The notes under the pieces: generated by a model
Seen by the model: the letters and a program-made list of their open reading frames with translations, nothing else
Database searches by the model: none
What the model was told of the DNA's origin: nothing
Shown: positions 1-18,533 of the stretch, one piece after another
How the letters are laid out: the number at the start of each line of letters is the position of its first letter
How positions within the stretch are numbered: position 1 is the first letter of the stretch
IMG/VR virus record: IMGVR_UViG_2923159863_000006
Reading direction: 5' to 3' (one strand)
DNA length: 64,000 bases
From: a virus
Lineage: Duplodnaviria > Heunggongvirae > Uroviricota > Caudoviricetes
Translations under genes and position numbers: made by a program

Positions 1-1590
<1,590 letters not shown>

Positions 1591-1620
1591 GGCATTGTCC
1601 TGCGGGGCTTTGCGAGATGG

Positions 1621-2838
1621 TTACGCGCTTTCCTCTGCTTCCTGTACCAATTCCGTACCAGTTTTAACCCTGGTCTGTAGCTTCTCCAGCTCGCTCCAAT
1701 CCGAGGCGGAGTTAAGCCACTTGGCATAAGTCGATAGCAGCATCTGCACGCTGTGGCCTAGCTGCCCAGCGATAAACGCAGGGTTCATGCCAGCCATCAG
1801 GCACATGGTTGCGTATGTGTGGCGGGTGTCATACTGCCGGCGCCTTCTGATGGATAGAGCATCAAGCGCGGCGTGGAAGTGCTTTATGGTAACACTTGGC
1901 TCCTTGATCCACAGCCCGCCTTTGCTGGGCGGGAATACGAACGGGCTGACTGCGAACTCCGAGACGGATGCGACCTGCTTCAGGCGCGCAATCCGCTTGG
2001 CCTCTGCCAGGGCATTTAAGGCACGATCATTGAGCAGCACGTCGCGCTCATGCTTGGTCTTTACTCGCTCCTCGATCCCGCGATCTATGACGATCCGGCA
2101 CACATGAATACGTCGTGCCTCTTCGTCTACCTCATCCCATCGAAGGGCGAACGCCTCTCCAGGCCGAAGACCAGTGAAGAACAGGAATTCGTACAGTGCG
2201 GCGTAGATCCTAGAGTACTTCCCTAGGGTCGCGTACAGGTGCTGGATGATGCGTTCTGCCTCGTCCCTGGTGAATGGATCTACCAGTTTCTTAGACACCC
2301 GCGGCTTCTCAAGGGGCGCCATCGGGTTCTTCTTGATCAGGCCGTCTTTCACAGCGGAATCTAGGATCGTCGACAGCTTGAACATCGCGTTTCGCTTCAC
2401 GCCTGGCGACGTCCACTCGATGCTGCTGATGATTCGGCGCAAGAGGGTAGGCGTGATTTGATCAAGCCGGGCTACTGCTAGATGCGGCATCCAGTATTGG
2501 TTGAGGATGCTCTTGTAGTTCTTCCGTGTCCCAAGCACAATCTCTCGGCTGTCTAGCCAGAGTTGAGCATGCTCACCGAACAGAGGGATTTGGCTGCTGA
2601 CCGATTCCGCAATCGCAGACCCTGGGAAGAACTCTGCATACTTGGCTTCATCCATGATGCCAAGCTTGATTGCCTGGACTACCTGATCTCTAAGACCGGA
2701 TGCAGTCTTAATCCCTTTTTGCGTCGCGGGATAGGGGAGTGTTTCGCACTTCCTTGTTCCGTTCCACATGAAGCGGATACGGATAGAGTTGCCGATGACT
2801 TCCACCCCGGTGGGCATACCCAAAGGCTTTCGAGCCAT
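1621..2838 (-). CDS. int: Tyrosine recombinase / phage integrase (405 aa)
   Basis: C-terminal catalytic region with the R..HxxR..Y pattern (YDTRHTYATMCLMAG ... GHSVQMLLSTYAKW). Identical to 33472-34689. Confidence 0.9.
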   Translation of the reverse strand: MARKPLGMPTGVEVIGNSIRIRFMWNGTRKCETLPYPATQKGIKTASGLRDQVVQAIKLGIMDEAKYAEFFPGSAIAESVSSQIPLFGEHAQLWLDSREIVLGTRKNYKSILNQYWMPHLAVARLDQITPTLLRRIISSIEWTSPGVKRNAMFKLSTILDSAVKDGLIKKNPMAPLEKPRVSKKLVDPFTRDEAERIIQHLYATLGKYSRIYAALYEFLFFTGLRPGEAFALRWDEVDEEARRIHVCRIVIDRGIEERVKTKHERDVLLNDRALNALAEAKRIARLKQVASVSEFAVSPFVFPPSKGGLWIKEPSVTIKHFHAALDALSIRRRRQYDTRHTYATMCLMAGMNPAFIAGQLGHSVQMLLSTYAKWLNSASDWSELEKLQTRVKTGTELVQEAEESA

Positions 2839-3020
2839 TCGTCGTATCTCCGTCGACTGTAGATTATTTTCCCGTTGACCTTGTTCCAGACGCCTTCTGG
2901 AATCTGTCCCTTTGACCGTCTGGTTTGTAGGGCGCGGTAGGTTATCCCAAGCAGCGCCGCCATGACCTGTTCGGGCACCTTGTCTTCGTACTCGATTTGC
3001 TCTGCGGTACTCATAGGCAA
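2679..3020 (-). CDS. xis: Excisionase / AlpA-like small DNA-binding protein
   Basis: Small basic ORF directly upstream of int and overlapping it, with an HTH-like segment (LLGITYRALQTRRSKGQIPEG). The true C-terminus is uncertain. Confidence 0.45.
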   Translation of the reverse strand: MPMSTAEQIEYEDKVPEQVMAALLGITYRALQTRRSKGQIPEGVWNKVNGKIIYSRRRYDEWLESLWVCPPGWKSSATLSVSASCGTEQGSAKHSPIPRRKKGLRLHPVLEIR

Positions 3021-3258
3021 TACCTCTCCGCCCCAGCTATTGCCGGGGAGGGCATGATGGTAGGATTTAGACGCCCAGCCGGGTTAGCTCAGGGAGAGCT
3101 AGTGGCGCCCGGCTGGGCTTACAGCAACCGTCTGATCATTAATTTTCTTATAAATCATGTGCTTATGTGTGATAGCACTAAGAAAATGAGTAAGACCGTC
3201 GGCAACCCGAGCAGCATGGTCTTCATGTAGCCCTTCATGACTCCGTTCCAGAACGGGC

Positions 3259-3444
3259 TCACTCCCCACCACCTGCCTTCCTGCGCTGATTCGCTCTGAT
3301 CCTCTGCGCTTTTTTCTTGGCCTCGTCTCGGCTATCTGCCTCTATGCGAAACACTTCACACAGCGCATAGTCTGGATCATCTGGACTGCCTCCAGTGCTC
3401 CAGCTTCCGTCTGGGAAGCGGGCAACGGTCCATACTAGTTTCAT
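3259..3444 (-). CDS. Hypothetical small phage protein (61 aa)
   Basis: ORF conserved in both repeat copies (35110-35295). Confidence 0.3.
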   Translation of the reverse strand: MKLVWTVARFPDGSWSTGGSPDDPDYALCEVFRIEADSRDEAKKKAQRIRANQRRKAGGGE

Positions 3445-3689
3445 TCCCCACCTCCCATCGACTTGCCGATCTCTGCGGCGGCTTCGGTGATTGCCAGCCT
3501 TGTCGCTGCATCTCGCCTAGCTTTTCCCAATAGATCGCGCAGTATTCGTGACCTGCTTGGTTCGATACCAGGGTCCATTGGTTTTCTCGGTCCGGAGTGA
3601 CTACAAGTCCGCGCTTCACAGCCAGCCTCAGCGCGTCGCCGTCGTCCTTCAGAGGGTTCCAGGTGGCCGGTTATCCCAGCCGCTTCCAT
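3377..3689 (-). pseudogene. Frameshifted homolog of the 115-aa gene at 35292-35639
   Basis: Copy 1 lacks single bases relative to copy 2 (for example gctgcatctcg against gctgccatctcg), which splits the ORF. Confidence 0.5.
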
Positions 3690-3782
3690 CGTTCAGAGGG
3701 CGCGCCATAGTTTCCCAGAACTCGGACCACGTGTATCCAACCCCCGCCGCCCGCGCCGCCAGTTCGAGTAGTTCGCGGTCGT

Positions 3783-4193
3783 TCATTTCTTGGCTCCTTC
3801 TATGGCTGCGTCGATTGCAGCGTCGAGGTGTTCTCCGAATAGATGCGATGTGCGGTTACGAACCACCACAACTCCGCGCTCCTTCTGCCGCAATGCGCGA
3901 TACCGCGCAGCATCCTTCGCCATGCGCCGAATCTGCTCTGGAATGCTGACATTGCCGCCGTCTGGAGGGTCCATGTAGTAGGTACCGGGGAGGGCGCTTG
4001 CGCATTGACTAAGCTCTGCCTCCAGCCGCTCAACCTCGGCAATCAGCCAGAGAACAACATCCGGAGAGGTCGCCACCATGAACTCCTGATCAACGTGGAA
4101 CTCCGGGAAAGCATCTACGGATGAGGCCTTGTACCAGTCGCCTTTGTCGCGCGCCCGCTCCGCCAGCTCCTTCAGCTTGTTGGTGTCGGTCAT
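3783..4193 (-). CDS. Ead/Ea22-like phage early protein (136 aa)
   Basis: Position and sequence are typical of the Ead/Ea22 family in Pseudomonas prophages. Identical to 35636-36046. Confidence 0.6.
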   Translation of the reverse strand: MTDTNKLKELAERARDKGDWYKASSVDAFPEFHVDQEFMVATSPDVVLWLIAEVERLEAELSQCASALPGTYYMDPPDGGNVSIPEQIRRMAKDAARYRALRQKERGVVVVRNRTSHLFGEHLDAAIDAAIEGAKK

Positions 4194-4709
4194 TGCTTTT
4201 TCTCCAAGTGCTTATGAATCAGCCATTGGAGGAAGCTGCCCAAAATGCAAAGCACAAGCAGCACAGGGCCAAGGCCAACGATGTACCCGAGCGCGGCGCC
4301 AAGCCTCATCTCTAGGACGAAGATGAACCATTGGCTGATGGCAATTCCAATGGATGTCCAAGCACGCAATATGCGAGCATCTTCAAAAACGTCTTCATGG
4401 CGCCACCTCGATTCCGGCTTGCTGGAGGGCTTGAGTGATCCGGTCAGTCGCATAGCAGTAGCCGGTATCGAAGTTGTCACGGCAGGAGTTCTGCAGTCAC
4501 GTTGACAGTCCTCGATGCCGTCGTCCGGCAACTCCACCCTCAGAGCCGCGCGGCTGGCTTTCCAAGTCTCCCCAATCCCATTGAATGTGCTCGTACTCGT
4601 ACCGGCCATCAGCCTGTATGGAGAACAGGCCATCGCCAAAGTCGTCGTAATCAGTAGACCAACGCACTTTCGCGTGCGCTTCAAACTCGTCTCTCACTGC
4701 TTGCTCCAT
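4190..4709 (-). pseudogene. Frameshift-fused remnants of two small genes (homologs of 36043-36252 and 36249-36563)
   Basis: The copy-1 ORF is a chimera of two frames. Copy 2 has two clean genes overlapping by ATGA. Confidence 0.5.
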
Positions 4710-4806
4710 CTGCTCAACTCCTGTCCTTTCAACTCGGTCTGCCTGTAGAGTTCCTGCATATCCCGACGACCCGGAAGATTCCCAGGACGGAAGAGAACGA
4801 TGACTA

Positions 4807-5229
4807 TCACTGCCAATATGGTTTCGTTGTCGTTGTCCACGGTTGGTCCTCCGGGGGCGGATGCGTTTGTTTCGTTGTTGGGTGTCGATGCCGTGATTCC
4901 GGCATCGGTATCAGTCGCCCGCCGCTTTGGCGATTAGGTGCATGAGCATTTCGCGCAGTTGCTCGCGCTCGAGCACCTGGCCGGTCTTTGCGTACTCGTC
5001 GGCTTGGCTCAGGATCGCGTCGATCTCGATGTTGAACATGCGGCGAGAGCACGTCTGGCTCACACTGTTCGAGCAGCAACTGGATTGCTCGGGTCGGGTG
5101 CGCCATCGTGATCCCGAGCCAGTTGTAGGCCGAGGCAGTGCGGTAGTAGCGGAGGCCGGCGATCTCATGTCGGCGCGGCGGGCGGAAGGGTTTCGTGCGC
5201 ATATTCAATCCGGGTAGTGGGTAGCCCAT
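4807..5229 (-). pseudogene. Frameshifted homolog of 36765-37082
   Basis: 1-bp insertion (catgcggcg against catcggcg) relative to copy 2. Confidence 0.45.
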
Positions 5230-5273
5230 TATCCGAATTGCTGTATATGCGTACAGTGGTTGGCGATGGGTGG

Positions 5274-5456
5274 CTATGCCTGCTCGCTCAGCAGGGCGCG
5301 GAGTTCGTTGCGAGCTACGACGTAATCAGCATGCGAAAGCAGTGGCTCGCACAGCCTGCGCAAAAGCCCCTCGCTGACCACTACATGGCCCGCTGGAATA
5401 ACTGCCAACTCCCGCACTTCATAGCCTGGCCAGTCCTGAGGGTTTGCTCTGACCAT
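5274..5456 (-). pseudogene. Truncated homolog of 37127-37390
   Basis: Same protein sequence as copy 2 over 60 aa, then interrupted. Confidence 0.4.
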
Positions 5457-5539
5457 GTCGTGGTGCTCCTTGGAGCAGGGGCGCCATTCTCCCGGATGGC
5501 TTGTGAAGAACGAGTAGTACGCTTCATCTCACCCATTGC

Positions 5540-5904
5540 TAACTCTCCGTATCAAGTAGCGCCCGGCATACCGGCAGTCCGGATCGCGTGCTTCGTGCCC
5601 CTCAAGGCAATCGGGGCACAGTCCGTTGTTCATGTGCTTCCTTTCCCGTAGCGGACCTGCGGAGCGTGTCGTGATTCGCTGACCGTCAGGCCGTTGGGCG
5701 CCGTCTCGAGGCAGGCGTTAAAAGCCGTCCGTCTTCAGGTTCTCAGCGGTAGGCAGCAGGCCTCCCCATTGCCGGGCTCCGGCACAACCACCACCCCTGC
5801 GCGCAGGGCTTCTAGGTCTTGCTCGACAACATCCCGTTCGCGCATAGCTTTCAAGCACATGCGCCTGCTCTCGTCGGCGACATGTTTGAGATCCTCGATG
5901 TGCG
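5540..5904 (-). pseudogene. 3' part of the homolog of 37393-37974, truncated at the repeat boundary
   Basis: Identity with copy 2 ends abruptly at 5904 (37764 in copy 2). Confidence 0.4.
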
Positions 5905-6075
5905 GACGACCTGCTGCGGGTGAAATTCGTCTATCGCCTGCCTGGCGCGGCATCCGGTTGCGCAGCTACAACCGGGACGAGTACCCCGATGAGGAGTACA
6001 CCAGGGACCAGATGCGTGCCGGTGACATCAGCGTGATCGGGTGGGGTGTTCTGGTGGTCGGTGATGCGCCGGCGG
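5905..6075 (+). pseudogene. C-terminal fragment of a CI-like (S24 peptidase) repressor
   Basis: DDLLRVKFVYRLPGA ... IRLRSYNRDEYPDEEYT matches the C-terminus of the cI at 47699-48406 (GGELRVKVLYRLPGGGIRVRSYNSDEHPDEEYT). It has no N-terminus and carries one frameshift. Confidence 0.55.
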
Positions 6076-6119
6076 CGACACTGACTGCTCTCAGCCGAAC
6101 CATTTTTCTGCCTAGCTGT

Positions 6120-6177
6120 CTGTATATACAGAGGGATTGATCTACCTCCCAGAGCGGCCTATCATCTGTATATACAA
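6120..6177 (+). promoter_or_regulatory. Promoter with two flanking palindromic operators
   Basis: CTGTATATACAG at 6120-6131 (perfect palindrome), TTGATC-17 bp-TATCAT at 6137-6165, then CTGTATATACAA at 6166-6177 immediately upstream of the brnT-like start. Confidence 0.5.
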
Positions 6178-6196
6178 AGTCAAATGGTAACCGCGC

Positions 6197-6341
6197 TTGG
6201 AAAATCTGATCATTTCGGACGCCATCGAGAGGAAGCTTCAGGAAAAGCATGGTGGCGTGAGCCGCAGAGAAATCGAGCAATGCTTCGAGAACTGCGAGGG
6301 TGAACACCTGATCGAGAGGATCACAAGACAGACCCTGTAAC
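6197..6341 (+). pseudogene. BrnT-like toxin fragment (N-terminal approx. 47 aa only)
   Basis: ISDAIERKLQEKHGGVSRREIEQCFEN resembles the BrnT KHGVSFEEA motif. The ORF stops early. No convincing C-terminal continuation in any frame. Confidence 0.35.
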
Positions 6342-6469
6342 GAATGGTTCGTAGCCGAAACAACGCTGGCAGGCCCTAAAGATCTGTTTCTTCGAGAATG
6401 GTAAGGTTTTCCTGAAAACAGCGAACCCAGTGCTGAAGAAACACGTATCTACAGAAAATTTGCAATCAA

Positions 6470-6829
6470 ATGACAAAGAGTGAGGAAGCTATGAGCAACG
6501 TTGAACTGTGGGAAAGCGGCGAGCTCGGGACGACCGAAGCGCACGCCCAAGTCTCCACTGGCTCAAAGCAAGAGGTGGATGACGCGCTCGGCCTCCAACT
6601 GATTTCCATTCGCCTACAAAAGCAATTAGTAAACGATCTCAAGAAAATTGCCGAGTATCACGGAGTCGGCTATCAGCCGATGATCCGCGACCTACTCAAT
6701 CGGTTTGCTCGATCCGAGATCAAGCAAATCATTTGTCAGCGACTGAATGAAATCGAGTCGTCCGAGAAAACTGTTAGCGAATCCAGCACCGCTCCGGTGA
6801 AGGAGTTCCTCGAAAAAATGAGGGCGTAA
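6470..6829 (+). CDS. BrnA-like RHH antitoxin (119 aa)
   Basis: ISIRLQKQLVNDLKKIAEYHGVGYQPMIRDLLNRF matches the BrnA family signature (IS.RLP..L...LK.IA...GVGYQ.LIR). Confidence 0.6.
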   Translation: MTKSEEAMSNVELWESGELGTTEAHAQVSTGSKQEVDDALGLQLISIRLQKQLVNDLKKIAEYHGVGYQPMIRDLLNRFARSEIKQIICQRLNEIESSEKTVSESSTAPVKEFLEKMRA

Positions 6830-6845
6830 CAGAAAGAGATTGTCC

Positions 6846-6875
6846 AATGGCCCCGCATCTGCGGGGCTTTTCATT
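6846..6875 (+). terminator. Rho-independent terminator after the brnA-like gene
   Basis: ggccccgcatctgcggggc hairpin followed by a T-run. Confidence 0.5.
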
Positions 6876-7061
6876 TCCGCCCTACCCCTCCAGCGCCTGC
6901 CTATCCCACCTCAGCGTTACGGTGCCGTCGTCGTTGAACACCAGGCCGACACCGTCCATCTCAGCCTGCACCTACTCGTAGCCCTTCCTCTTTCTTTCTG
7001 TGCCCCTACACCAGCTTCACGCCCCGCCTCAAAGACTCCGCTCTTGCCATTCTGATTCACA

Positions 7062-7107
7062 GGTACATTTTGCAATTGACAATGTACCTTTAAGGTACTA
7101 GATTGAT
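7062..7107 (+). promoter_or_regulatory. Two GTAC-containing inverted repeats upstream of the luxR-like gene
   Basis: AGGTACATT-N11-AATGTACCT, then AAGGTAC-N18-GTACCTT. Confidence 0.4.
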
Positions 7108-7536
7108 TTGCAGTATGTACCTTCTTGGTTCCAGAGCACGGAGCAGCACATGACCACCACCGCCACCATCACAGCACACGGTTTCACCGGCTTCCTCGGC
7201 AAAGGCCTGTCCCTGCGTGAGCTTCAGTGCGTCCTGGGCATCGCTGCGGGTCGTACCTCGAAGGAGCTGGCCCGCGACCTGGGCATGCAGCCGGGCACGG
7301 TGGGTAAGCGCGTTCTGGCAGCGACCACCAAACTCGGAGTCACCCGCCGTGCCGCCCTGGTGGCTGAAGCCATGCGCCGCGGGCTTATCTCGCCCGCCGT
7401 GATCGCCCTCGCCTTCCTCGTCGCCGGTCAGCCACTGCTCAACGATGACCACATGATGCGCAGCCGCCGTGGCGGCGAAAGGAAGATCGAAACTCGTCTG
7501 ACTGCTCGCCGCGATGGCGTGGCCTGGGTGGCGTGA
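7108..7536 (+). CDS. LuxR/GerE-family HTH transcriptional regulator
   Basis: LSLRELQCVLGIAAGRTSKELARDLGMQPGTVGKRVLAATTKLGV is a classic LuxR C-terminal HTH. The true start may be the downstream ATG at about 7150. Confidence 0.7.
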   Translation: MQYVPSWFQSTEQHMTTTATITAHGFTGFLGKGLSLRELQCVLGIAAGRTSKELARDLGMQPGTVGKRVLAATTKLGVTRRAALVAEAMRRGLISPAVIALAFLVAGQPLLNDDHMMRSRRGGERKIETRLTARRDGVAWVA

Positions 7537-7772
7537 TCATGGCCTGGGACAGAAACGATCCTCTCAACATCCTGGCGCTGCAGCTCGACGGTGAACTGCG
7601 CGCAGCGGCCGACTTCTGCCATGGCTACAACGGGCCGGCACAGCGCGCTTTCGCCCGGCACATCCAGGGCCTGGGCAAGACGCTCGACGAGCTTACCGTG
7701 GCAGACCTGAAGGCAGCGGCCGGATTTGCGGACGCAGAACTGAACGACCTGCAGCAGAGAGGGCTGATCTGA
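7533..7772 (+). CDS. Hypothetical protein (79 aa), translationally coupled (ATGA) to luxR-like
   Basis: ORF and operon position only. Confidence 0.35.
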   Translation: MIMAWDRNDPLNILALQLDGELRAAADFCHGYNGPAQRAFARHIQGLGKTLDELTVADLKAAAGFADAELNDLQQRGLI

Positions 7773-7871
7773 CGCGGCAGACCGAACGCGCCGAAGCAGC
7801 CAAGCAGTAACCAACCGATTTTCGCGAAAGCCAACAACCGCGGCAGGCCATCGGCTTGCCTGGAGGAAAGC

Positions 7872-8126
7872 ATGGACAACAAACCTCTCATCAAGCCCGG
7901 GAAGCTCTTCCTGATCTGTATCGCCCTGCTGGCCTATGCCGGGTTGTCCGTCGCCCTGGTGGGCGGCATTGGGCCGGCCCTGGTCAGCAGTCGCGACGAT
8001 GTTCTGGTCTTCGCGGGATTCGCCATCCCCGGCGTCTGGTTGATCGCCTCGGTCTGCCTCGGCATCCACCTCGCCAACACCCGCCGTGAAGAAGCGGCCA
8101 CCACCAGCAAGGAGAAAGACCAATGA
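7872..8126 (+). CDS. Small two-TM membrane protein (NfeD/YqiJ-like partner of SPFH)
   Basis: Hydrophobic 84-aa ORF, 4-nt overlap with the downstream SPFH gene. Confidence 0.45.
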   Translation: MDNKPLIKPGKLFLICIALLAYAGLSVALVGGIGPALVSSRDDVLVFAGFAIPGVWLIASVCLGIHLANTRREEAATTSKEKDQ

Positions 8127-8959
8127 AGCGGATTCCCGCTGCTGCAATGCTGTGCCTGCTCGCCGTCCTGGCGGGCTGTTCGAAGGTGCCTGCCGGCAAC
8201 GTCGGCGTGATCGTCAACCTCTACGGCTCCGAGAAGGGCGTGGAGACGCGCGAGGTCGGCACTGGGCGCTACTGGGTAGGCGTGAACGAGGAACTCTACC
8301 TGTTCCCCACCTTCACGCAGACCGAGACCTGGGGTGGCGAGGAAGCGATCAGCTTCCAGACCGTTGAGGGCATGAAGGTTGGCGGCGCCGTCGGCATCAC
8401 CTACTCGGTATCTCCCGACAAGGTGACGACGCTGTTCCAGAAGTACCGGGCGGGTATCGACGAAATCACGAACAAGTTCTTGCGGAACATGGTGCGCGAT
8501 GCCTTCAACGATGTTGCCTCGAAGCTTCCAGTCGAGAGCGTCTATGGTGCCGGCAAGGCGGACCTGCTGCTGGCCGTCGAGAAGCGCGTGCGCGACCAGG
8601 TGGCGCCCATCGGCATCAATATCGAGCGCATCTACTACGCATCCGACCTGGTCCTCCCGCCGCAGGTTACGCAGAGCCTGAAACGCGAAGATCCCAGGCC
8701 ACCCAGATGGCCGAGCAGCGCCGTAACGAGGTCGCCCAAGCCAAGGCAGAAGCCGACAAGGAACGCGCTCGGCCCAAGGGGAGGCGGACGCGAAGCTGAC
8801 CCTGGCCACCGCCGATGCGAAGGCGATCGAGATCCGCGCCCAAGCGCTGCGCTCGAACCCCGACGTCGTGACCCTCAACGCGGTCGAGAAGTGGGACGGC
8901 AAGCTGCCACCTACATGGCCAGCGGCTCCCCGCTTCCCTTCATCGGCATCAGCAAGTAG
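8123..8959 (+). pseudogene. SPFH/Band-7 domain lipoprotein, disrupted by at least three 1-bp deletions
   Basis: Lipobox LAGC. SPFH body continues in shifted frames (QATQMAEQRRNEVAQAKAEADKERA..GEADAKLTLATADAKAIEIRAQALRSNPDVVTLNAVEKWDGKLP.TYMASGSPLPFIGISK) through 8958. Confidence 0.6.
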
Positions 8960-9000
8960 CCCCTCGCCCAGGCGCCAGCGATGGCGCCACTGGAGATCCC

Positions 9001-9231
9001 ATGAAACGAGCAACCGTTGTAACCGAACTGCCGGCCAGCACCAGCCGGGACATGGACAAGTTCGTTGTCCGTCTGCCGGACGGCCTGAGGGCCGAGGTCG
9101 AAGCCGAGGCCAAGCGAGACGAGCGCAGCATGAACTCCTTGATCGTCGTTGCCCTGCGCGAGTACCTGCATGGTCAGCGCCGAAAGCATGCGCTCCTCGA
9201 TGCTCTGACCGCTGCCACCGGAGGGCACTGA
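9001..9231 (+). CDS. Arc/MetJ-type ribbon-helix-helix DNA-binding protein (76 aa)
   Basis: FVVRLPDGLRAEVEAEAKRDERSMNSLIVVALREYL matches the Arc family. Confidence 0.6.
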   Translation: MKRATVVTELPASTSRDMDKFVVRLPDGLRAEVEAEAKRDERSMNSLIVVALREYLHGQRRKHALLDALTAATGGH

Positions 9232-9234
9232 CCA

Positions 9235-10381
9235 TGAAGCAAGCACTCATCGGCACCGCGATCAGCCTGCTGCTCAGCGCGTGCCTGTACTTCGGTCAGG
9301 GTCGCTTCACCAGTTCGCCTTCTATGTGGCGCGGCCACGAACGTTCTCTGCTGGCTGCTGATATTCGCCGGCGGCATCAAGGGGCAAGGAGCCGCGAACC
9401 TGCTCGCCCGCCCTTGGCTCTCCATCCCTACCGCGCTCTGCACGTGGCGGCCCTGGCCGTCACAGATCACCCCGCACTCGCGGCTTCGAGTCTGCTGGTG
9501 CAAATGGCTTGCTACGCCTCGCCTACCAGGCGGTGCGCAGCGCCGAGCAAGGGGGTGACCTATGACCATGCCCTGTTTAAACAGATCGACCTGACCGCCA
9601 AGCTCGGCCAGGACGGTAGCTCGCTCCAGGCCATGAACGCGCTACGCGTCATCCGGGAAACGGTAGCGAAGCACCTGGCCGGCACCGGAGGGTGCAGGAG
9701 AGATTCCGCTCGAGCGCGCCCTCCTGGCGCTCCGCACCATCGCCGAGTTCCCCTGTCCCGAGCAGGACAACATGCCGGCGGCGAACATGCGGCAGATCGC
9801 GCTGGCGGCGCTGAGCGGGGCTGGGGTGAGTACGGAGCCGGGCAACCCTGGCGGCGAACCTGTTTCCGGACCGGGTAATACCGGCGAGCCCCCTGGCCCG
9901 CGCCGAGGCCGGGTGATGACTCCCTTGGCGAAAGCCTTCGAACCCTGGAACGCTGGCTTGATCGAGTGGCAATCGAGGACGGCTATGTCGGCGTGCCGGT
10001 GATCGAGGCCGTCGAGGTGGTGGTCACCGAGATGAAGCGCCAGCAACAACCAGTCGATCCGGCCTTCTGCCGCTGCAACCACTGGTTCGCCGGGGATAGC
10101 GTCGAAGCGGCCTTCATTCGCCAGCATGGCCAGTGCCAGGACTGCGTCGAGATGGACCAGATGCTGGAGCGGGAAGGCAGGCGAGAACGCCAAGCGCTAC
10201 CTGTGGCTGCGCAACACGGCTCTCTATGCATCGGACCTGGCCCGCGAGGTCAACCGCATGGACAAGAGGCGTCGTCAACCTGTTCCCGCGGGACAAGGAC
10301 GGCAACCTCCTGGCAGAGGCTGATCTGGACGAGGCCATCGATGCTGCCATGGCGAAGCCGCCGGAAGGCGGTGACGCATGA
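9235..10381 (+). pseudogene. Frameshift-fragmented gene or genes (lipoprotein-like N-terminus, C-terminus ...VVNLFPRDKDGNLLAEADLDEAIDAAMAKPPEGGDA)
   Basis: Protein-like segments appear in three frames in turn. No single clean ORF. Confidence 0.25.
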
Positions 10382-10905
10382 GCATCACCCTCAAGGGCCA
10401 TGCCCTCAACCAGCGCCAACTCGACGCTATCACCCCCGGTGATGAACGACCTGATTCAGGGTCGGGTTGACCTGGCAAGTTCGATGATGCCTGCGTCAAA
10501 GCCCTGGATAACGCCGGCTGCCCGCTGGGCTATGACACCAGCATGCCCGGTACCGGCAGCACCATCGAGGAGCGGGCCGCCAGATGGCTGAGTGACGGTC
10601 AAGTGGGAGCGTCTTCGCGGGCCATCCACGATCACATGCTCGGTCTGCCCATGGAACGCCACCACGCGGCCTATCCCCATGACCCGGACGACCTGAATCG
10701 CTGCCTGCTCCTGCTGAACCTAATCCCTGAATGGGCGTCACGCATCCGCGAGATGGCCCAGCACAGCCAGGAGTGGGCCGCACTGGCGAGCAGTTGGGGA
10801 AAGCTCACCAACCTTTTCCTGCAAGAAGCTGGTCTGGACTGGCAACGCAGCAGCGGAGCCCCCGAAACCTACGCAGCGATGCGATTCCTACTGGGTGATG
10901 CATGA
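10380..10905 (+). pseudogene. Hypothetical gene with a frameshift in a C5 run at about 10437
   Basis: MSITLKGHALNQRQLDAI... continues in the frame of the 10543-10905 ORF (KFDDACVKALDNAGCPLGYDTSMPGTGSTIEE...). Confidence 0.3.
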
Positions 10906-11204
10906 GAAAAGCACTGACCGCCATCGCACTCGTCGCGCTGTTTGGCCTGGCTGCTGTTGCCGCCGGCGCAGCGCTCCAGCCGTTCAAGACCCTGTTCATC
11001 TGGGAGGTATGCCAGTGATGAGAGGCTCCGACATTCCACCACCACCAGGGTATCGCCCTACCCCGCTCGCCACCCTCGGCCAGCAGTTGGTCCGCCTGGC
11101 CAGGCGATGCAGAACCCCAACACCAAGCTCGGCGAGTTGACCGAACTGGTCCAGGCCTGCGGCGTCGACCTGCGGATCTGCGACACGAACAAGGAGAGCC
11201 GGTC

Positions 11205-11924
11205 ATGAGGGGCGCAACGTTGCACAGGCTGATCGATATCTACGCCGACAGTCGCCGTGACCTGCGCGTCCGTTTGGCGGCCCTCCGGATGTTCGTCCGC
11301 GCGGTGTGCGCCGATCGCAACACCAGCTTCGCCGAGTATCGCCTGATGCGTCGGCGGCTCCTCAAGGGCATGCCGTTCACCGAGCAGGCGCTTGAACGCG
11401 AACGAGCGGCATATCTGGATCGCACCAGAGCTGCGAGGCAAGCCATGGAGGAGAGCGGCGCCTGGCTTATCGGAAACTCAGCCATGATCGAGCAGGCCCT
11501 GTCGTTCGACGATCTGTGCGACCTCCTGGTGGTGAACCATGCCCACCGTGCCGAGGCTGCCGAGGTCTGCGCGGGCGACGCCGGAGTCGTTGGCGGCCTG
11601 CTCTGGATTGGCGGGGAGTTCGAGGACAGCGCAGACCACAAGAGCGGCCGCTCCAACCGAGGGAACACGGGGCCACTTACCGCTGCGGTCCAGAACCTGT
11701 TTCAGAAGTTCTTGCTTGAAAACCCGTCGGCCATCCCTGACCCGTTCGCCCTGGGTGGCCCTTTCTACGGCGCCCTGCGGCAGGAGATGGCGCCAGATGG
11801 AACGGTGCAGATTCGGCGACCGGCACTCACCGTCCACAGCCTGGACGGATCGACCCGTACGGTTGAGCGAAAGCCGGAGGCGTATTCGGTAGTGGCGAAA
11901 GATGGTGGGGGTCGCCATGGCTAG
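11205..11924 (+). CDS. Hypothetical protein (239 aa)
   Basis: Intact ORF, no recognisable motifs. Confidence 0.4.
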   Translation: MRGATLHRLIDIYADSRRDLRVRLAALRMFVRAVCADRNTSFAEYRLMRRRLLKGMPFTEQALERERAAYLDRTRAARQAMEESGAWLIGNSAMIEQALSFDDLCDLLVVNHAHRAEAAEVCAGDAGVVGGLLWIGGEFEDSADHKSGRSNRGNTGPLTAAVQNLFQKFLLENPSAIPDPFALGGPFYGALRQEMAPDGTVQIRRPALTVHSLDGSTRTVERKPEAYSVVAKDGGGRHG

Positions 11925-12246
11925 AACTCTGCTTCGCGTGATGAGGGGAGAGTTTGCGTTCTACCTGACCGAAGGGTCGAAGGGAGGCAAGAAAGGTGGG
12001 GCGCGCTGGGCCTTATACCGAACCAGCGGGTACGGGAAGATCAAGGACGGATTCGTCTTCGTCAACAGCGGTGACCGCGCCAGGCTGCTGGCAATGACGA
12101 ACGACGGTGAACGGATGGATGCCTGCCAGGCACTGTTCGACAGTAAGAAACGCCGGGCCTACGTTCGGCGCTGCGAGATTCGCGGCCCATCCGGCCGCTG
12201 GGAGGGGCTTGCATTCAAGCCTAGGCCTCAGGAATGCGCTACCTGA
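11902..12246 (+). CDS. Hypothetical protein (114 aa)
   Basis: ORF only. Confidence 0.3.
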   Translation: MVGVAMARTLLRVMRGEFAFYLTEGSKGGKKGGARWALYRTSGYGKIKDGFVFVNSGDRARLLAMTNDGERMDACQALFDSKKRRAYVRRCEIRGPSGRWEGLAFKPRPQECAT

Positions 12247-12509
12247 CTGTTAAAAAATTCGCCAGCGAGTCTGGCTACACCGAAGACGCCGTGCGCTCGA
12301 AGATCCGCGACGGAATCTGGCGCCTCGGCGAGATATGGAAAAAAGCACCGGATGGCCGGACGCTTATTGATGTAGAGGGGTATGAAGCATGGGTAGAGAT
12401 GGGCGGGGAGTCAGGGCAGTCTCTGATTCGAGTATCGAAATCACGTTCATGTATCGCGGCGTCAGGTGCCGGGAGCGCATCTCGCTCAAGCCCACCGCCA
12501 CTAACCTGA
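12234..12509 (+). CDS. xis: Phage excisionase-like HTH protein
   Basis: LTVKKFASESGYTEDAVRSKIRDGIWRLGEIWKKAPDGRTLIDVEGYEAWVE, immediately upstream of and overlapping int. Confidence 0.55.
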   Translation: MRYLTVKKFASESGYTEDAVRSKIRDGIWRLGEIWKKAPDGRTLIDVEGYEAWVEMGGESGQSLIRVSKSRSCIAASGAGSASRSSPPPLT

Positions 12510-13543
12510 AGCGAGCAGAGCAGCACAAGGCGGCTATCGAACATGCGATCGCCGCCGGTACCTTCGACTACTCGGTGACATTTCCTGGATCTCCGCGCGC
12601 CGCCAAGTTTGCGCCTGAGGCGTCACGCGAGACGGTTGCGGGATTCCTTGGCCGATGGCTTGAGTCGAAGCGCAAGCACGTCTCCAGCAGCACCTTCGAG
12701 GGCTACAGGAAGATTGTAGAGCTTCGTCTGGTGCCGGCCCTTGGGCCCGTCATGGTGGTCGACCTGAAGCGGAAGGCCGTCAAGGATTGGCTGGACACCC
12801 TGAAGGTGAGCAACAAGACGCTCAGCAATATCCAGAGCTGCCTACGCTCGGCCCTCAGTGATGCGATGGAAGAGGAACTGATCGACAGCAACCCCCTCGC
12901 CGGCTGGACATACGCAAGGAAGGGAGAGGTCAAGGACGACGACGTGGACCCATTCTCGCCGGAAGAGCAGCAGGCGATTCTGAGTGCCCTCGATGGTCAA
13001 GGGCGGAACCTAGTACAGTTCGCATTCTGGACGGGGATGCGTACCAGCGAACTCGTCGGCCTCGAGTGGGGCGATATTGACTGGCTCCGCGGCGAGGTGC
13101 GCGTCACCCGCGCCATGACCCAGGCAGCCAAGGGAAAAGCGGAGGTGACGAAGACCACTTCCGGCCGGCGCAGCATCAAGCTGCTCGGCCCTGCGCTGGA
13201 AGCCTTGAAGGCGCAAAAGGAATTCACCTACCTGGCCAATCAGGAAGTCTTCCAGAACCCGAGGACGGGCGAGCGATGGGCCGGCGACGGACCGATCCGG
13301 AAAACACTCTGGGTTTACGCGCTGAAGAAGGCCGGCGTGCGCTACCGTCGTCCGTACCAGACCCGGCACACCTACGCATCCATGATGCTGTCTGCCGGGG
13401 AGCATCCGATGTGGGTAGCCACACAGATGGGGCACAGCGACTGGACCATGATTGCCAGGGTATATGGCAGATGGATGCCTGCCGCAGATGCGTCGGCAGG
13501 GGAAAAGCTGAGCAGATGTGGCAAGGCGACGAGCCTCAATTGA
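12389..13543 (+). CDS. int: Lambda-family tyrosine integrase (384 aa) with an arm-type N-terminal domain
   Basis: DSSIEITFMYRGVRCRERISLKPT...GTFDY matches lambda Int N-terminus. C-terminal R..H..R..Y catalytic region (YQTRHTYASMMLSAG ... GHSDWTMIARVYGRW). Confidence 0.85.
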   Translation: MGRDGRGVRAVSDSSIEITFMYRGVRCRERISLKPTATNLKRAEQHKAAIEHAIAAGTFDYSVTFPGSPRAAKFAPEASRETVAGFLGRWLESKRKHVSSSTFEGYRKIVELRLVPALGPVMVVDLKRKAVKDWLDTLKVSNKTLSNIQSCLRSALSDAMEEELIDSNPLAGWTYARKGEVKDDDVDPFSPEEQQAILSALDGQGRNLVQFAFWTGMRTSELVGLEWGDIDWLRGEVRVTRAMTQAAKGKAEVTKTTSGRRSIKLLGPALEALKAQKEFTYLANQEVFQNPRTGERWAGDGPIRKTLWVYALKKAGVRYRRPYQTRHTYASMMLSAGEHPMWVATQMGHSDWTMIARVYGRWMPAADASAGEKLSRCGKATSLN

Positions 13544-13578
13544 CATCCTTGAAGGCTAGCGGATAATCATCGACCGTT

Positions 13579-14076
13579 TTGATGTCACATGCTATACACA
13601 CGTTATCCACAGGAAATGACCAAGGAGGTCTTATGCCAAGCTCTATCGATGTGGCGAAGTTTTTCCTCGCCCAATCCAACGAAGAGGCCGGCGACCTTGT
13701 GTCCAACCTGAAGCTGCAGAAGCTCGTGTACTACGCTCAGGGCTTCCATCTCGCCGTCTACGATGAGCCTTTGTTCACTGACTCCATCGAAGCATGGACG
13801 CACGGTCCTGTCGTGCCGAACGTCTATCACCACTACAAGCAGTTCGGCTCGGGCAGCATCCCAGCGCCCATAGACTTCAATCTGGAAGCGTTCAGCCCCG
13901 AGCAAGTAGAACTGCTCAATGAAGTGCAGCAGATCTACGGGCAGTATTCGGCTTGGCGACTGCGCGAGATGACCCACGAAGAAGCCCCCTGGCGGAACAA
14001 TTATCAGGCAGGGGCGATGAGCCGTGAAATTCCTGCGGACGACATGCGCCAGTTCTTTAAAACCCTTGTGAAGTAA
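13579..14076 (+). CDS. Panacea-domain (DUF4065, SocA/GepA-like) protein
   Basis: LKLQKLVYYAQGFHLAVYDEPLFTDSIEAWTHGPVVPNVYHHYKQFG is the DUF4065 signature. Alternative start at 13633. Confidence 0.65.
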   Translation: MMSHAIHTLSTGNDQGGLMPSSIDVAKFFLAQSNEEAGDLVSNLKLQKLVYYAQGFHLAVYDEPLFTDSIEAWTHGPVVPNVYHHYKQFGSGSIPAPIDFNLEAFSPEQVELLNEVQQIYGQYSAWRLREMTHEEAPWRNNYQAGAMSREIPADDMRQFFKTLVK

Positions 14077-14085
14077 GGGCGTGGC

Positions 14086-14499
14086 ATGGCACGTCTCAGG
14101 GATAGAGGCTCTAAAAGCAGTCTATTACTCAAGGAAAGGCCAGCACCTACTGAGAACCCGGAGCTGAAGCCGCCTTTGTTTTCCTTCGAGTTCATGCAGG
14201 CGGATTACTGCGTGTCGGAGTGCACGTCTGATGAGAGAAGCCAGGTACTATCCAAGCTTCGCACTCTCAGCCAAATGTCTTGGCAACAGATCAAGCAAGC
14301 CCCTCGCCATGGTCTTGGGTTCGAGATTATCGGGCGTCCATCCTTCAAGGCCGCAATTCCAGCCTTCGTTACAGACGACACCAACCTGATCTCATTCCGT
14401 GCAATTGGCAAAGCCCCAATGGTCGGGTATCGCGACGGTCGGGTATTTCACATCCTTTGGATCGATAGAGATTTCACCGTATACGATCACGGGTCTTAG
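14086..14499 (+). CDS. Hypothetical 137-aa protein immediately downstream of the Panacea gene (candidate toxin/effector partner)
   Basis: Intact ORF 9 nt after the DUF4065 gene. No recognisable family. Confidence 0.45.
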   Translation: MARLRDRGSKSSLLLKERPAPTENPELKPPLFSFEFMQADYCVSECTSDERSQVLSKLRTLSQMSWQQIKQAPRHGLGFEIIGRPSFKAAIPAFVTDDTNLISFRAIGKAPMVGYRDGRVFHILWIDRDFTVYDHGS

Positions 14500-14503
14500 C
14501 TGT

Positions 14504-14525
14504 AATGACAGCCTTATGACAGCTT
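14504..14525 (+). repeat. 22-bp direct repeat, left copy (gtaatgacagccttatgacagc)
   Basis: Repeated with 2 mismatches at 14664-14685. The two copies flank the tmRNA fragment and its terminator. Confidence 0.5.
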
Positions 14526-14529
14526 CCAG

Positions 14530-14587
14530 CCTGGAAGCCGCGTCAAATGGGGGCTAGATGCGGGTTCAAATCCCCCCGGCTCCACCA
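14530..14587 (+). ncRNA. ssrA: 3'-terminal fragment of tmRNA (ssrA), att-site remnant, not a complete gene
   Basis: GGATGCGGGTTCAAATCCCCCCGGCTCCACCA matches the tmRNA T-arm and acceptor end (E. coli GGACGCGGGTTCAACTCCCGCCAGCTCCACCA). No upstream tmRNA or tRNA body. Confidence 0.55.
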
Positions 14588-14604
14588 AACAACCCTTACA
14601 AATC

Positions 14605-14637
14605 AGGCACTTAGCGATTATCGCAAGTGCCTTTTTT
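14605..14637 (+). terminator. Rho-independent terminator (native ssrA terminator carried with the fragment)
   Basis: aggcacttagcgattatcgcaagtgcc hairpin followed by TTTTTT. Confidence 0.55.
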
Positions 14638-14663
14638 GTGCCTGAATGGGCTGTTTTGGCTCG

Positions 14664-14685
14664 GTAATGCCAGCTTTATGACAGC
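14664..14685 (+). repeat. 22-bp direct repeat, right copy
   Basis: gtaatgccagctttatgacagc. Confidence 0.5.
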
Positions 14686-14688
14686 CTG

Positions 14689-14790
14689 TCATTCACCTCT
14701 GTTCGCCTCCGGCAGCGGGAAGCGCACCCTGATCTCATCGACCTTGCGACCCAAGCGCTGTAGTCCGGTTCAGCGCCGGCCTTGACGTGC
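14689..14790 (-). pseudogene. 3' fragment of a tail-fibre-assembly-like gene (diverged duplicate of 15107-15346)
   Basis: Minus-strand translation HVKAGAEPDYSAWVA.VDEIRVRFPLPEAN aligns with DAIKAGVEPDYSAWMAKVEEIKARFPLP. About 75 percent nucleotide identity to 15120-15200. Confidence 0.5.
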
Positions 14791-15106
14791 GGAAAGGGAA
14801 TTTAAACGCTCAACAAAGCACAACAATATCACCGGCCGCCACACGCTCGGACAGGAATGTCAGCTTGCCGATCCCTTCCTGCAGAAATCGGCTGAGTTGC
14901 TCGATGCACTCGCGCTGGTCATCAGTGAGGCTGAACTCAGCCTCCATGCTTTCCATCAGGTCAAGGCAACACTGGTTGAGGAATCCCACCTCCAGTAACT
15001 CCGCCCGGAGCCTACGCCGCAACATCTCGTCCATACCAACATCCCTATCTACTCCGCATATCAGACTGTCGGAACGTGGCAAAAACGTGAACCTCGTCAC
15101 AACTAC

Positions 15107-15346
15107 CTATTCAGCTAGTGGACTAGGCAACGGGAAGCGGGCCTTGATCTCCTCGACCTTGGCCATCCAGGCAGAGTAGTCCGGTTCCACGCCGGCCTTG
15201 ATAGCGTCGAACTCGGCCTCGGTCTTGAGCGGGTCACTCTCCAGGCGGTAGGCATTTGCCCGAGCCACGGCTGCGGCATCGTACTCAGCCTGCCAGCGTT
15301 CTTGCGCCTGCTGTTCAGCGGTCTTTACCTGGCTCCAGTCGATCAT
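15107..15346 (-). CDS. Tail fibre assembly / chaperone-like protein (79 aa)
   Basis: Last gene of a tiled minus-strand tail-fibre operon. Tfa-like size and position. Confidence 0.45.
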   Translation of the reverse strand: MIDWSQVKTAEQQAQERWQAEYDAAAVARANAYRLESDPLKTEAEFDAIKAGVEPDYSAWMAKVEEIKARFPLPSPLAE

Positions 15347-15654
15347 CGCGGTAACTCCACAGGTCCATCAGCCTCGATCAGCAACGGTTCAGGGAAGCGA
15401 GCGGCGGCACTGGCATCAGCGGCCAGCGGGAACCGCAGGGTTAGTTCCAGCCGGCCATTCCTTCGCGCCACAGGACCAGCGAATAACTCCGATCCAATGG
15501 CCTCGGTCGGCAACTCGCCGCCCTCCGGGAGCGGAGTGAAGTCGAACGCCTGGCCGTTCACGGTGAGTACATCGCCAGCCCTGCTCAGTGACAGGCGCTC
15601 GTCGCTTCCCGGCAGCGGAGCAAACGGTGACAACTTGATGATCATCAGAACCAC
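15343..15654 (-). CDS. Hypothetical tail-associated protein (103 aa)
   Basis: Overlaps neighbours by 4 and 10 nt. Confidence 0.35.
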   Translation of the reverse strand: MVLMIIKLSPFAPLPGSDERLSLSRAGDVLTVNGQAFDFTPLPEGGELPTEAIGSELFAGPVARRNGRLELTLRFPLAADASAAARFPEPLLIEADGPVELPR

Positions 15655-16208
15655 CTCCCCACAACCATAATGCTCAACCCGTTGGTACCAAGGTCTTCAT
15701 TCAAGTAGAAAGTAACTTGGTCCCCGCCCATGTAGCCGCCCCTAACCCCCGCCGCAGCCGATGGCCAGCCGCTGAACGGTATCCAGTTGACGATGAGGCT
15801 ATATGAGGATCCTCCGATAAACTCAGCCGCCAACTGCACTGTGTTGGGCCCTGCTTGGTAGTTGCTACCAGACCCCGTGATTTGGCGTATGCAAATCTGA
15901 GTTCCATCTGCAAACCGAACGAACTCACCATTCGCGTTGCTGCCACGCTGGATCACCGCGCCAGTCGGTACGCCGCTCGACTGCGAAACGGCGCCCAGAA
16001 TGCTGTCTCGAGAGTACAAAGCCCCAGTTGAACCCAGGGCAGGTCTAACTGCAGCACTCCCAAGCCCAAGGGACGTGCGCGCACCAGCGGCGGTTGCAGC
16101 TCCTGTTCCGCCGAGTGCTACCGGCACCGTGTCGCCGTCGGCGAACTCGCGGAGACTGCCGTAGCCGTTGCCGTCGGCCTGGAGTTTCGTCGGGCGTATA
16201 TCAGCCAT
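15645..16208 (-). CDS. Tail fibre protein (distal/tip domain), 187 aa
   Basis: Gly/Ser/Ala-rich fibre-like composition, followed by chaperone-like genes. Confidence 0.5.
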   Translation of the reverse strand: MADIRPTKLQADGNGYGSLREFADGDTVPVALGGTGAATAAGARTSLGLGSAAVRPALGSTGALYSRDSILGAVSQSSGVPTGAVIQRGSNANGEFVRFADGTQICIRQITGSGSNYQAGPNTVQLAAEFIGGSSYSLIVNWIPFSGWPSAAAGVRGGYMGGDQVTFYLNEDLGTNGLSIMVVGRWF

Positions 16209-16503
16209 TGAACAGCACCTGGATGTTGAGTTGAGCGCCGGCGGCGGTGTACGCCGGCAATTGGCCGTCTGGGTTCATGGCGAGCCGCAACATAGAGCCG
16301 TCGGCGAGATACCCAGGAACAGCCGCGGGGATGCGGACGTTCATCGGGTATGCCACCACGACGCCCGCGCCGTTGGTCACGAACTGGTCGTATCCGGTGC
16401 TGCGCCGGACGAAGTAGATCGCGTTCGGCTCCAGCACCGCAGGCAACTGCGCGACGACCTTGTGGGTCTGGAGCACAGCCATTACCAGGCCGTCCCATTC
16501 CAC
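16201..16503 (-). CDS. Tail-fibre-related protein, N-terminal paralog of 16482-17075
   Basis: Shared motif LPAVLEPNAIYFV against LPGTLEPDSFYFV. Confidence 0.4.
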   Translation of the reverse strand: MEWDGLVMAVLQTHKVVAQLPAVLEPNAIYFVRRSTGYDQFVTNGAGVVVAYPMNVRIPAAVPGYLADGSMLRLAMNPDGQLPAYTAAGAQLNIQVLFNG

Positions 16504-17075
16504 TCAGCCGGGATCGGCTGGCCGTTGAAGCGCACCAGGCCAGAAGCCTCACCGAACTTGTCCAGCGTCGACTTGTTCGCGTGCGTGTGCGCCTGGGAAA
16601 CGGCAGTGTCGATCTGCGCCGGCGTCGAGGTCGGCCGCCCGTTGATTGCGTCCCAGTTGAGCTCGACGTCCATCGACTCATACTCGGCCACCTTCAGCCA
16701 GGCGCTGGTCGCCGGGTTCCAGGCGTACAGCGCAGCTCCGGACTCGACTGTCGGGTCCGCGCTCGCATCCTGAACCAGAACGAAGATTGCGCCCTCAGGC
16801 TCCAGGGCATCGCGTGCAGCGATATCCGCAACGAACAGGATCGGCGCGCCGGTGCCGGGCAAGCTGGCCAACGCATCGTTGATCAGCGCGTTGATCATCG
16901 TGCTGTTACCGATCGAGCGCGCCACGCCGGCGCTGTTCGTCAGGTAGGACTCCGAGTAGCTGCCGTTCTCGACGAAGTAGAACGAATCGGGTTCCAGCGT
17001 ACCCGGCAGGGTTGCCACTTTGAAAAATCGAATCTGGGCCATTTCATCACCAATCAGTCGCGCCCCATTGGGCAC
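16482..17075 (-). CDS. Tail fibre protein (197 aa)
   Basis: Fibre-like. HTHANKSTLDKF (HxH) motif as seen in fibre C-terminal domains. Confidence 0.5.
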   Translation of the reverse strand: MPNGARLIGDEMAQIRFFKVATLPGTLEPDSFYFVENGSYSESYLTNSAGVARSIGNSTMINALINDALASLPGTGAPILFVADIAARDALEPEGAIFVLVQDASADPTVESGAALYAWNPATSAWLKVAEYESMDVELNWDAINGRPTSTPAQIDTAVSQAHTHANKSTLDKFGEASGLVRFNGQPIPAEWNGTAW

Positions 17076-17230
17076 CGTCTACGCCATCCCTCCCGGGAGG
17101 CCCTTGGTCACCCGCAACAACCACAAGCACATCGGCCGGCGGCGTCACGGTGACCGCGTATTCCTGCATCTCGCTGAGCACAAGCGGCTCGCAATCAACC
17201 TCGATCGCCAGCGCCCAGGGCTCGGCGGCG

Positions 17231-17917: not shown

Positions 17918-17927
17918 GCCTCCATCT

Positions 17928-18533
17928 CTAACGGGGAAAAGCCACTAACATCCACATCAACCTGACGCGATCCGTGGGGCCATGCGGGGTGAGAGCCACT
18001 CCAGCAAACCGACGGTCTCTACCACGATAGAAAAAAAGGCCTAGAAGCTTGTTTGAGTATCTAAGCACCGGCCACGCAGATTGGTCGCTTATCGTCGACG
18101 GACGCCCCGGGAACAGCTCAATTGGCGACGACCAGTCCAATCCTTCCGCATAACTGTCGCCAACATCAGGAGTAAGCAGGTATATATCACCCAAGCTAAT
18201 AGACTCCGATCCACTCGCGACACTTTGACCAGTGATGCTGTCAGTCCATTGGATAGAACCAGGCCCATTAAGAACCCCGCTCGTAGAAAGCGAGTTGTAC
18301 AGCGACTCTGAGGACCCGCCGGAAGAAGAGCTCAAGGTGTAGGAAAACGAAATATCTTCGGTCATGCTAAATGAGATGTGATCGCCAGAGATACCTGCCG
18401 AGCGCGACATCGTTGACACGATAGAAACTTCGAGCGTTATTAGTTCAAGGGAGCCAGACAATCCATACCACGCTCCAGCAGTTGACCTTGCGCGAAGTGA
18501 TGCTGAAAACTCTCCGATTAGAACTCTATACAC
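17928..18533 (-). CDS. Ser-rich tail-fibre-like protein (201 aa), low-GC segment
   Basis: Composition. Local GC about 50 percent against about 62 percent in the flanks. Confidence 0.3.
   Translation of the reverse strand: MYRVLIGEFSASLRARSTAGAWYGLSGSLELITLEVSIVSTMSRSAGISGDHISFSMTEDISFSYTLSSSSGGSSESLYNSLSTSGVLNGPGSIQWTDSITGQSVASGSESISLGDIYLLTPDVGDSYAEGLDWSSPIELFPGRPSTISDQSAWPVLRYSNKLLGLFFYRGRDRRFAGVALTPHGPTDRVRLMWMLVAFPR

Follow-up and report, generated by a model that had tools for sequence, protein, structure and literature searches.

The 64,000-nucleotide stretch of DNA analyzed here (the window; IMG/VR record IMGVR_UViG_2923159863_000006, Caudoviricetes) begins in host sequence, carries the 4.3-kb integrase module of a temperate phage, here called phage B, followed by a 14.9-kb piece of a second temperate phage (phage A), and then continues with phage B again, including a second copy of the integrase module. 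The window corresponds to positions 3,599,693-3,663,692 of GenBank record CP022000.1 from Pseudomonas aeruginosa Pa127 (loci L026, L036 and L042 of our comparison, 100% identical). Our analysis indicates that the structure of the window is very probably an assembly artefact, in which poorly polished contig ends were concatenated without merging, and that it reflects neither gene decay nor a demonstrated duplication. The features are collected in Table 1.

The published history of the record is informative in this respect. Pa127 was sequenced with PacBio RS-II only, using P4-C2 chemistry and a 20-kb library, and was assembled with HGAP/Quiver (PMC5589533). Table 1 of that announcement lists 13 contigs, yet the sequence was deposited as one accession of 7,148,302 bp (CP022000), and short-read polishing or gap closure is not mentioned in the text. 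The announcement also reports 205 pseudogenes for Pa127 versus 131 for the sister ST309 strain Pa124.

Self-BLAST of the window aligned positions 1563-5904 (copy 1) with 33414-37772 (copy 2) as a direct repeat of 4363 alignment columns with 99.4% identity, 1 mismatch, 20 gap openings and 25 gap columns. An initial annotation had already described two near-identical 4.3-kb copies; the repeat is confirmed, with the second copy extending over 33414-37772 rather than 33416-37764. The number of differences, given there as about 12 one-base indels, was an underestimate: global alignment revealed 20 indel events (25 nt), three of them not single-base. The description of the copies as differing by indels only is almost correct, as there is a single substitution, and it abuts a gap (GA to C at 5639/5640, equivalent to one deletion and one substitution in copy 1). 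In 16 of the 20 events bases are absent from copy 1, among them deletions of 5 nt (AGCGC) and 2 nt; in the other four copy 1 has additional bases. No difference was found between the copies in 1563-3507, and all 21 lie within 3508-5775. Density climbs toward 5904, with 12 differences, including the multi-base deletions, in the final 400 bp of the repeat. Short homopolymers are not the predominant context, in disagreement with the earlier description. Runs of three or more identical bases host only about half of the single-base events, and the other half or so occurred in runs of one or two bases.

These indels have severe consequences for the predicted genes. According to the list of open reading frames (ORFs), only the integrase (405 aa), a 61-aa ORF and a 136-aa ORF are intact in copy 1, so that the two copies, contrary to the earlier description, do not encode identical proteins. 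The genes for products of 115, 69/104, 48, 105, 87 and 193 aa are broken or scrambled in copy 1. In copy 2, the ORFs follow one another along the minus strand, overlapping by 4 bp. A fused 164-aa ORF of copy 1 had no match in an exact protein look-up, probably because of a start-codon issue, since CP022000.1 calls a product of 147 aa. The 405-aa ORF matched the Pfam families Phage_integrase (PF00589, E 3e-16), Arm-DNA-bind_2 (PF12167, E 1e-12) and Phage_int_M (PF22022). It thus combines the catalytic domain of a tyrosine recombinase with an arm-binding N-terminal domain.

Comparison with independent P. aeruginosa genomes identified the faulty copy. At each of the 20 sites, the allele of copy 2 is the one present in five independent genome loci (L013, L015, L017, L018 and L020). 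Window positions 1-5904 are the same as in L013, L017 and L020 except for the same 20 indel events, and 1-3508 is identical to L013 and L017. Likewise, 3058-5904 differs from L015 and L018 only by the copy-1 indel events. Over 6434 bp, copy 2 together with its continuation (33414-39847) aligned to L013 without any gap and with 1 mismatch. Phage outgroups sided with copy 2 at the five sites that they cover (4493, 4761, 4789, 5040 and 5519). In L013, L017, L019 and L020, the 405-aa integrase module adjoins the same 529-aa host ABC-F ATPase gene, and the module genes are called with sizes of 193, 87, 105/96, 48, 104, 69, 136, 115, 61 and 405 aa, which are the sizes found in copy 2. The exact 193-aa protein, whose gene is intact in copy 2, was listed in 240 collection blocks. 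Because the comparator loci carry the copy-2 alleles, all frame breaks belong to copy 1, as the initial annotation had stated, and they are private to this record.

The comparison also brought up a difference in two of the comparator records. At window-equivalent position 38155, L015 and L018, from complete genomes (CP124626.1, CP124657.1), have one C more and one C less than the window in the same C-run, and the called genes there are 528 and 568 aa long versus 434 plus 59 aa. These changes are likely homopolymer slips in other long-read records.

Private indels are not restricted to copy 1. Altogether about 70 indel events (58 deletions and 12 insertions) and one substitution are private to the record, all of them in 3508-23628. 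An automated rate, defined as the number per kb of indels at which every covering relative disagrees with the window, was 0 for 1-3508, 6.7 for 3509-5904, 10.3 for 5905-6500, 0 for 6501-8650, 8.1 for 8651-10500, 0.3 for 10501-17750, 4.3 for 17751-20807, 4.2 for 20808-23650, and 0.08 for 23651-64000. The three events counted in the last interval are not private errors: the events at 40675 and 40678 are a compensated -1/+1 pair, and the allele at 39833 is shared with L013. In the region 23,651-64,000, where relatives with at least 94% identity cover 36.7 kb, private indels are therefore effectively absent. Its divergence from relatives is of another kind. The clean part of the window differs from relatives of 94-97% identity by hundreds of substitutions, and the indels there are only in-frame or locally compensated. 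Outside copy 1, the frameshifting indels that had been noted earlier were found again at about 8681-11098 and 20859-23628, and additional ones, not listed earlier, at 5947-6422 and 17797-20602. Error density rises toward two blunt joins (see below), with an internal noisy patch at 8651-10500 as the exception. Hypermutation in a mismatch-repair-deficient strain was considered as a source of the indels and rejected: no accompanying transitions were found, about half of the single-base events lie in runs of one or two bases, and multi-base deletions occur beside a join.

The two joins, at 5904/5905 and 20807/20808, had not been recognized earlier; the same is true of the foreign 14.9 kb between them and of the recurrence of 20808-29480 past the end of the window. 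Both joins are blunt, cut a gene on either side, and have no microhomology. Phage A sequence begins at 5905, with the last 180 bp of its S24-type repressor gene. After the phage A segment, phage B sequence does not resume at the equivalent of 37773. An insertion of phage A into copy 1 was thus ruled out, by the failure of phage B to resume, by the attP order of the phage A piece and by its gene-cutting ends. The 40-mer spanning join 2 was absent from IMG/VR, whereas the 40-mer of the natural continuity between tubular-protein and nozzle genes was present in 16 IMG/VR contigs. The 40-mer spanning join 1 was also absent from IMG/VR, but as the natural-continuity control at 37772 was absent as well, this absence is uninformative.

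The phage A piece has the gene order of the excised form, spanning the phage attachment site (attP). In comparison with integrated A prophages, homology extends no further than 14595 on the integrase side (L022-L025), and on the tail side it sets in at 14562 (L063 and L064); these two limits define a 34-bp core. Other P. aeruginosa genomes carry phage A at another location, integrated at a tRNA-like attachment site. The core (GGGTTCAAATCCCCCCGGCTCCACCA...) resembles a tRNA 3' end, with T-arm, acceptor stem and CCA. ARAGORN found no complete tRNA in the window, which fits an attP that carries only the 3' part of the tRNA. Compared with L023, positions 5905-14589 showed 0 substitutions and 26 indel events (8 in 5947-6422, 16 in 8681-10480, and one each at 11098 and 13499). 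Compared with L063, positions 14562-20808 showed 0 substitutions and 12 deletions, all within 17797-20602. A Band_7 gene at 8123-8959 keeps its length only through cancelling changes of +1, +1, -1 and -1.

Phage B provides the link between join 2 and a contig end. Window positions 20808-29480 recur 43,970 bp downstream, from window-equivalent position 64778, as read from the part of CP022000.1 (L036) that reaches 9452 bp beyond the window end. Alignment of the two stretches (8683 columns) gave 18 single-base indels and 0 substitutions. The downstream repeat starts, to the base, at join 2 (20808), which identifies this position as the start of a contig and not as a recombination joint. A mosaic recombination joint at 20808 was ruled out for the same reason, that the very same base starts the overlap repeat. 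The errors in the overlap switch sides. Over the first 2.8 kb the window copy is faulty, and the downstream copy agrees with the relatives and has an intact 779-aa gene. The 12 indels of 20859-23628 were seen in comparison with each of 12-17 relatives. Starting at 26499, the faults lie in the downstream copy, which has six deletions and in which gene calling split the 640- and 847-aa genes into fragments.

One position in this region requires separate comment. At 23616-23630, on the boundary of the 159/157-aa genes, the comparison with HB2107-3I and YA3 (96-97% identity) showed extra segments of 6 nt and 2 nt within 15 bp. The downstream copy of the record differs there by one G only (23624-23628). 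Natural local divergence and a single consensus error coincide at this site.

We propose that the window was built from three contigs. Contig X would represent the host chromosome across the left attachment site (attL) and 4.3 kb into prophage B, with read support thinning until it stops at 5904. The reach of such a contig would be set by reads with an anchor in unique host DNA, and with distance from this DNA support would drop and the consensus degrade. Thinning of host-anchored support would explain why copy 1 is clean over its first 1.9 kb and increasingly faulty over its last 2.4 kb. Contig Y (5905-20807) would be a small, thinly supported contig spanning the phage A attP. Contig Z, from 20808 to past the end of the window, would comprise more than one unit of phage B, with overlapping and badly polished ends; its source would be circular excised DNA, replicating DNA or a tandem array. 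If X, Y and Z were set end to end with their overlaps unmerged, the integrase module would appear twice, copy 1 being the overhang of X and copy 2 part of the well-covered interior of Z.

The initial annotation had offered consensus errors in a repeat or low-coverage region and a very recent duplication as explanations of the repeat. The first gains support from deviant alleles that are private, consist almost exclusively of indels and become denser toward the blunt join, and from the documented multi-contig origin of a record based on PacBio reads alone. The location of a join exactly where the end overlap of phage B starts points in the same direction. The second is not needed, as a chromosomal contig overhang and a separate phage contig of more than one unit are the simplest explanation.

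Contig ends of this type have been described. For long-read (HGAP) assemblies, the Circlator paper (PMC4699355) reports near-identical overlaps at either end of contigs of circular DNA, and also "low-quality contig ends". The Pa127 record resembles these cases in having near-identical sequence of low quality, with indel differences, at both ends of the phage B stretch, and the overhang with the integrase module shows the same behaviour. It differs from them in that the contigs have been pasted into one "complete chromosome", where they mimic a prophage duplication and a hybrid prophage, and in that an unrelated small contig (phage A) lies between the overlapping pieces.

The sister strain Pa124 provides a further comparison. 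Its record (CP021774.1), obtained by the same method and described in the same paper, also contains an attP-spanning piece of phage A, with different ends (window-equivalent 10865-19896) and with its own private indels near these ends. The difference in end points between the sister strains indicates arbitrary contig ends and not a conserved biological structure. In CP021774.1 (3485233-3505796, L065), the 9-kb phage A piece is flanked on each side by a copy of a 5.2-kb Pf-like filamentous-phage segment. Between these two copies, which carry Zot, G2P_X_C and RstB-like genes, 2 mismatches and 7 gap openings were counted. The sandwich is probably a concatenation artefact of the same kind.

Four points weigh against the concatenation of contig ends. 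Low coverage at these ends is an inference rather than an observation. The announcement (PMC5589533) is silent on how 13 contigs became one record. Moreover, 16 private single-base indels lie at 8681-10480, in the middle of the phage A piece and more than 2.7 kb from either join. Distance from a join does not explain this patch, and we attribute it, as an extra assumption, to very thin read support of the whole small contig. Finally, a real tandem lysogen would, like excised circles, give attP-spanning reads.

The last point leads to an alternative that we regard as unlikely, namely that the two module copies reflect a tandem lysogen or multimer of phage B. Even then, the indels would be consensus errors, and phage A would be misplaced. 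The record does hold more than one unit of phage B and a junction of tail fibre, attP and integrase (33294-33471), and the contigs expected from a collapsed tandem repeat are no different from those of a free circle. This junction is, however, equally expected from excised circles. Phage records share the tail fibre-attP-integrase order of the window. In the six other assemblies listed (with 19 further similar places beyond the listing), the identical 758-aa tail fibre gene is followed by host genes, whereas in the window it is followed by attP and the integrase. The order of attL and attP and the presence of two integrase modules also match tandem polylysogeny, but the first "unit" does not, since it would consist of 4.3 kb of phage B, 14.9 kb of phage A in attP order and 12.6 kb of phage B tail genes. 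A complete first unit between attL and attP was not found: 5905-20807 is phage A, and about 27 kb of phage B (equivalent to 37773-64777) are missing. Neither visible end of the phage B contig reaches host DNA. All other P. aeruginosa assemblies examined have one copy, with prophage B present once, flanked by the ABC-F gene on one side and by host genes on the other. Furthermore, an attP-spanning piece of phage A is present in both sister strains, and spontaneous excision of both phages is more economical than two tandem arrays. Because attP reads are indicated for both A and B, and because other genomes carry single prophages, we prefer excised circles as the source of these reads.

Genuine pseudogenisation appears very improbable. 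It would posit a defective hybrid prophage, made up of copy 1, the phage A fragment and broken tail genes, that decayed by frameshifts beside the intact prophage B. Frameshifted and truncated prophage remnants do occur beside intact prophages in bacterial genomes, and the deposited sequence reads as such a decayed hybrid. However, about 70 indels stand against 1 substitution, so that the substitutions that should accompany decay, and that number in the hundreds in natural relatives at 94-97% identity, are lacking. The lesions are private to the record and clustered at blunt joins, and join 2 is the start of the overlap repeat. They were not inherited by the sister strain, whose record has other lesions and other end points, and the 13-contig history of the Pa127 assembly also speaks against decay. 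It is equally hard to credit that the deposited structure is real, that is, a hybrid prophage in tandem with intact B that was shaped by an indel-only, deletion-biased process concentrated at recombination joints.

The initial annotation had included a methyltransferase gene of phage B among the frameshifted genes. The ORF in question is a half-length C5 DNA methylase, whose match to the Pfam model is confined to the N-terminal half. Its DNA is identical in independent genomes: 42981-47462 aligned to L020 with 0 mismatches and 0 gaps, and the methylase DNA is also identical to L013. The same 225-aa product is called in other genomes. Judged from these identities, the truncation is genuine, common to other genomes and unrelated to the artefact. 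The 225-aa ORF almost wholly overlaps a 228-aa ORF in another frame (window 43119-43809, minus strand), and gene callers choose either one, depending on the record.

Table 1. Features of the window (positions in the window; accession coordinates in brackets).
Feature	Position	Strand	Basis or remark
Host ABC-F type ATPase gene, 529 aa	1..1590	-	Pfam ABC_tran (twice) and ABC_tran_Xtn
Integrase/early-gene module, copy 1	1563..5904		attL-proximal end of prophage B; self-BLAST; matches L013, L017 and L020 except at 20 private indel events
Tyrosine integrase, copy 1, 405 aa, intact	1621..2838	-	ORF list; Pfam domains on identical copy 2
Copy-1 error zone: 16 deletion events, 4 insertions, 1 substitution	3508..5775		Alignment with copy 2 and comparators
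Blunt join 1	5904..5905 (CP022000.1 3605596/3605597)		Left: inside phage B 193-aa early gene; right: inside 3' end of phage A S24-type repressor gene
Phage A, 14.9-kb piece of second temperate phage	5905..20807		Like CF60a, CF79a, PAN70 and LPPA33; excised (attP) order
Phage A attP core, 34 bp, GGGTTCAAATCCCCCCGGCTCCACCA...	14562..14595		Bounds of homology to integrated A prophages
Blunt join 2	20807..20808 (CP022000.1 3620499/3620500)		Left: inside phage A tail gene; right: 5 nt into phage B 779-aa nozzle/tail gene
Phage B, temperate podophage, unit 43,970 bp	20808..64000	+	Like Ab31, YA3 and HB2107-3I; JBD44-type integrase module
Noisy phage B start: 12 private single-base indels fragmenting the 779-aa gene	20808..23628		Against downstream copy, 0 substitutions
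Phage B attP region	33294..33471		Between tail-fibre stop and integrase stop; crossover 33414 = 1563
Integrase/early-gene module, copy 2, intact	33414..37772	- (genes)	405, 61, 115, 136, 69, 104, 48, 105, 87 and 193 aa; 193-aa gene runs beyond repeat end
C5 DNA methylase ORF, half-length, 225 aa	43132..43809	-	Pfam PF00145, model positions 2-167 of 324

In vegetative order, the phage B genes run from the tail genes and the tail fibre through attP, integrase, early genes and repressor to replication, lysis, terminase, portal and capsid. Phage B shares gene order with the podophages Ab31, YA3 and HB2107-3I, and 94-97% DNA identity with them over the tail, replication, lysis and head genes; its mosaic departs from theirs in the early region and also in the gene for the tail fibre, where identity is about 75-77%. 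The integrase and the attP flank are 97% identical to JBD44. In the early region of phage B, near two consecutive 68-aa genes, a 58-bp direct repeat was found (46597-46654 and 47306-47363, 96.6% identity, about 700 bp apart).

In other genomes, phage B is likewise integrated beside the host ABC-F ATPase gene. The repeat starts 28 nt inside the 5' end of this gene, and 1563 is the attL crossover. The phage B attachment region (1563-1590 and 33414-33441) therefore overlaps the first 28 nt of the gene. In the integrated state, the start of the ABC-F gene and its upstream region come from the phage DNA immediately beyond the integrase stop.

In practice, some 20 kb of CP022000.1 (3,603,200-3,623,320) are unreliable and should not be used for inference of gene content or pseudogenes. 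The artefact inflates the pseudogene and prophage counts of this record, and the false "hybrid prophage" and the false 4.3-kb duplication could mislead surveys of prophages, pan-genomes and pseudogenes. The biology behind the record is ordinary, and the value of the finding is practical. Nevertheless, attP-spanning reads are implied for phage A in both strains and for phage B in Pa127, and the presence of attP-spanning sequence in both strains suggests that these prophages excise spontaneously in culture.

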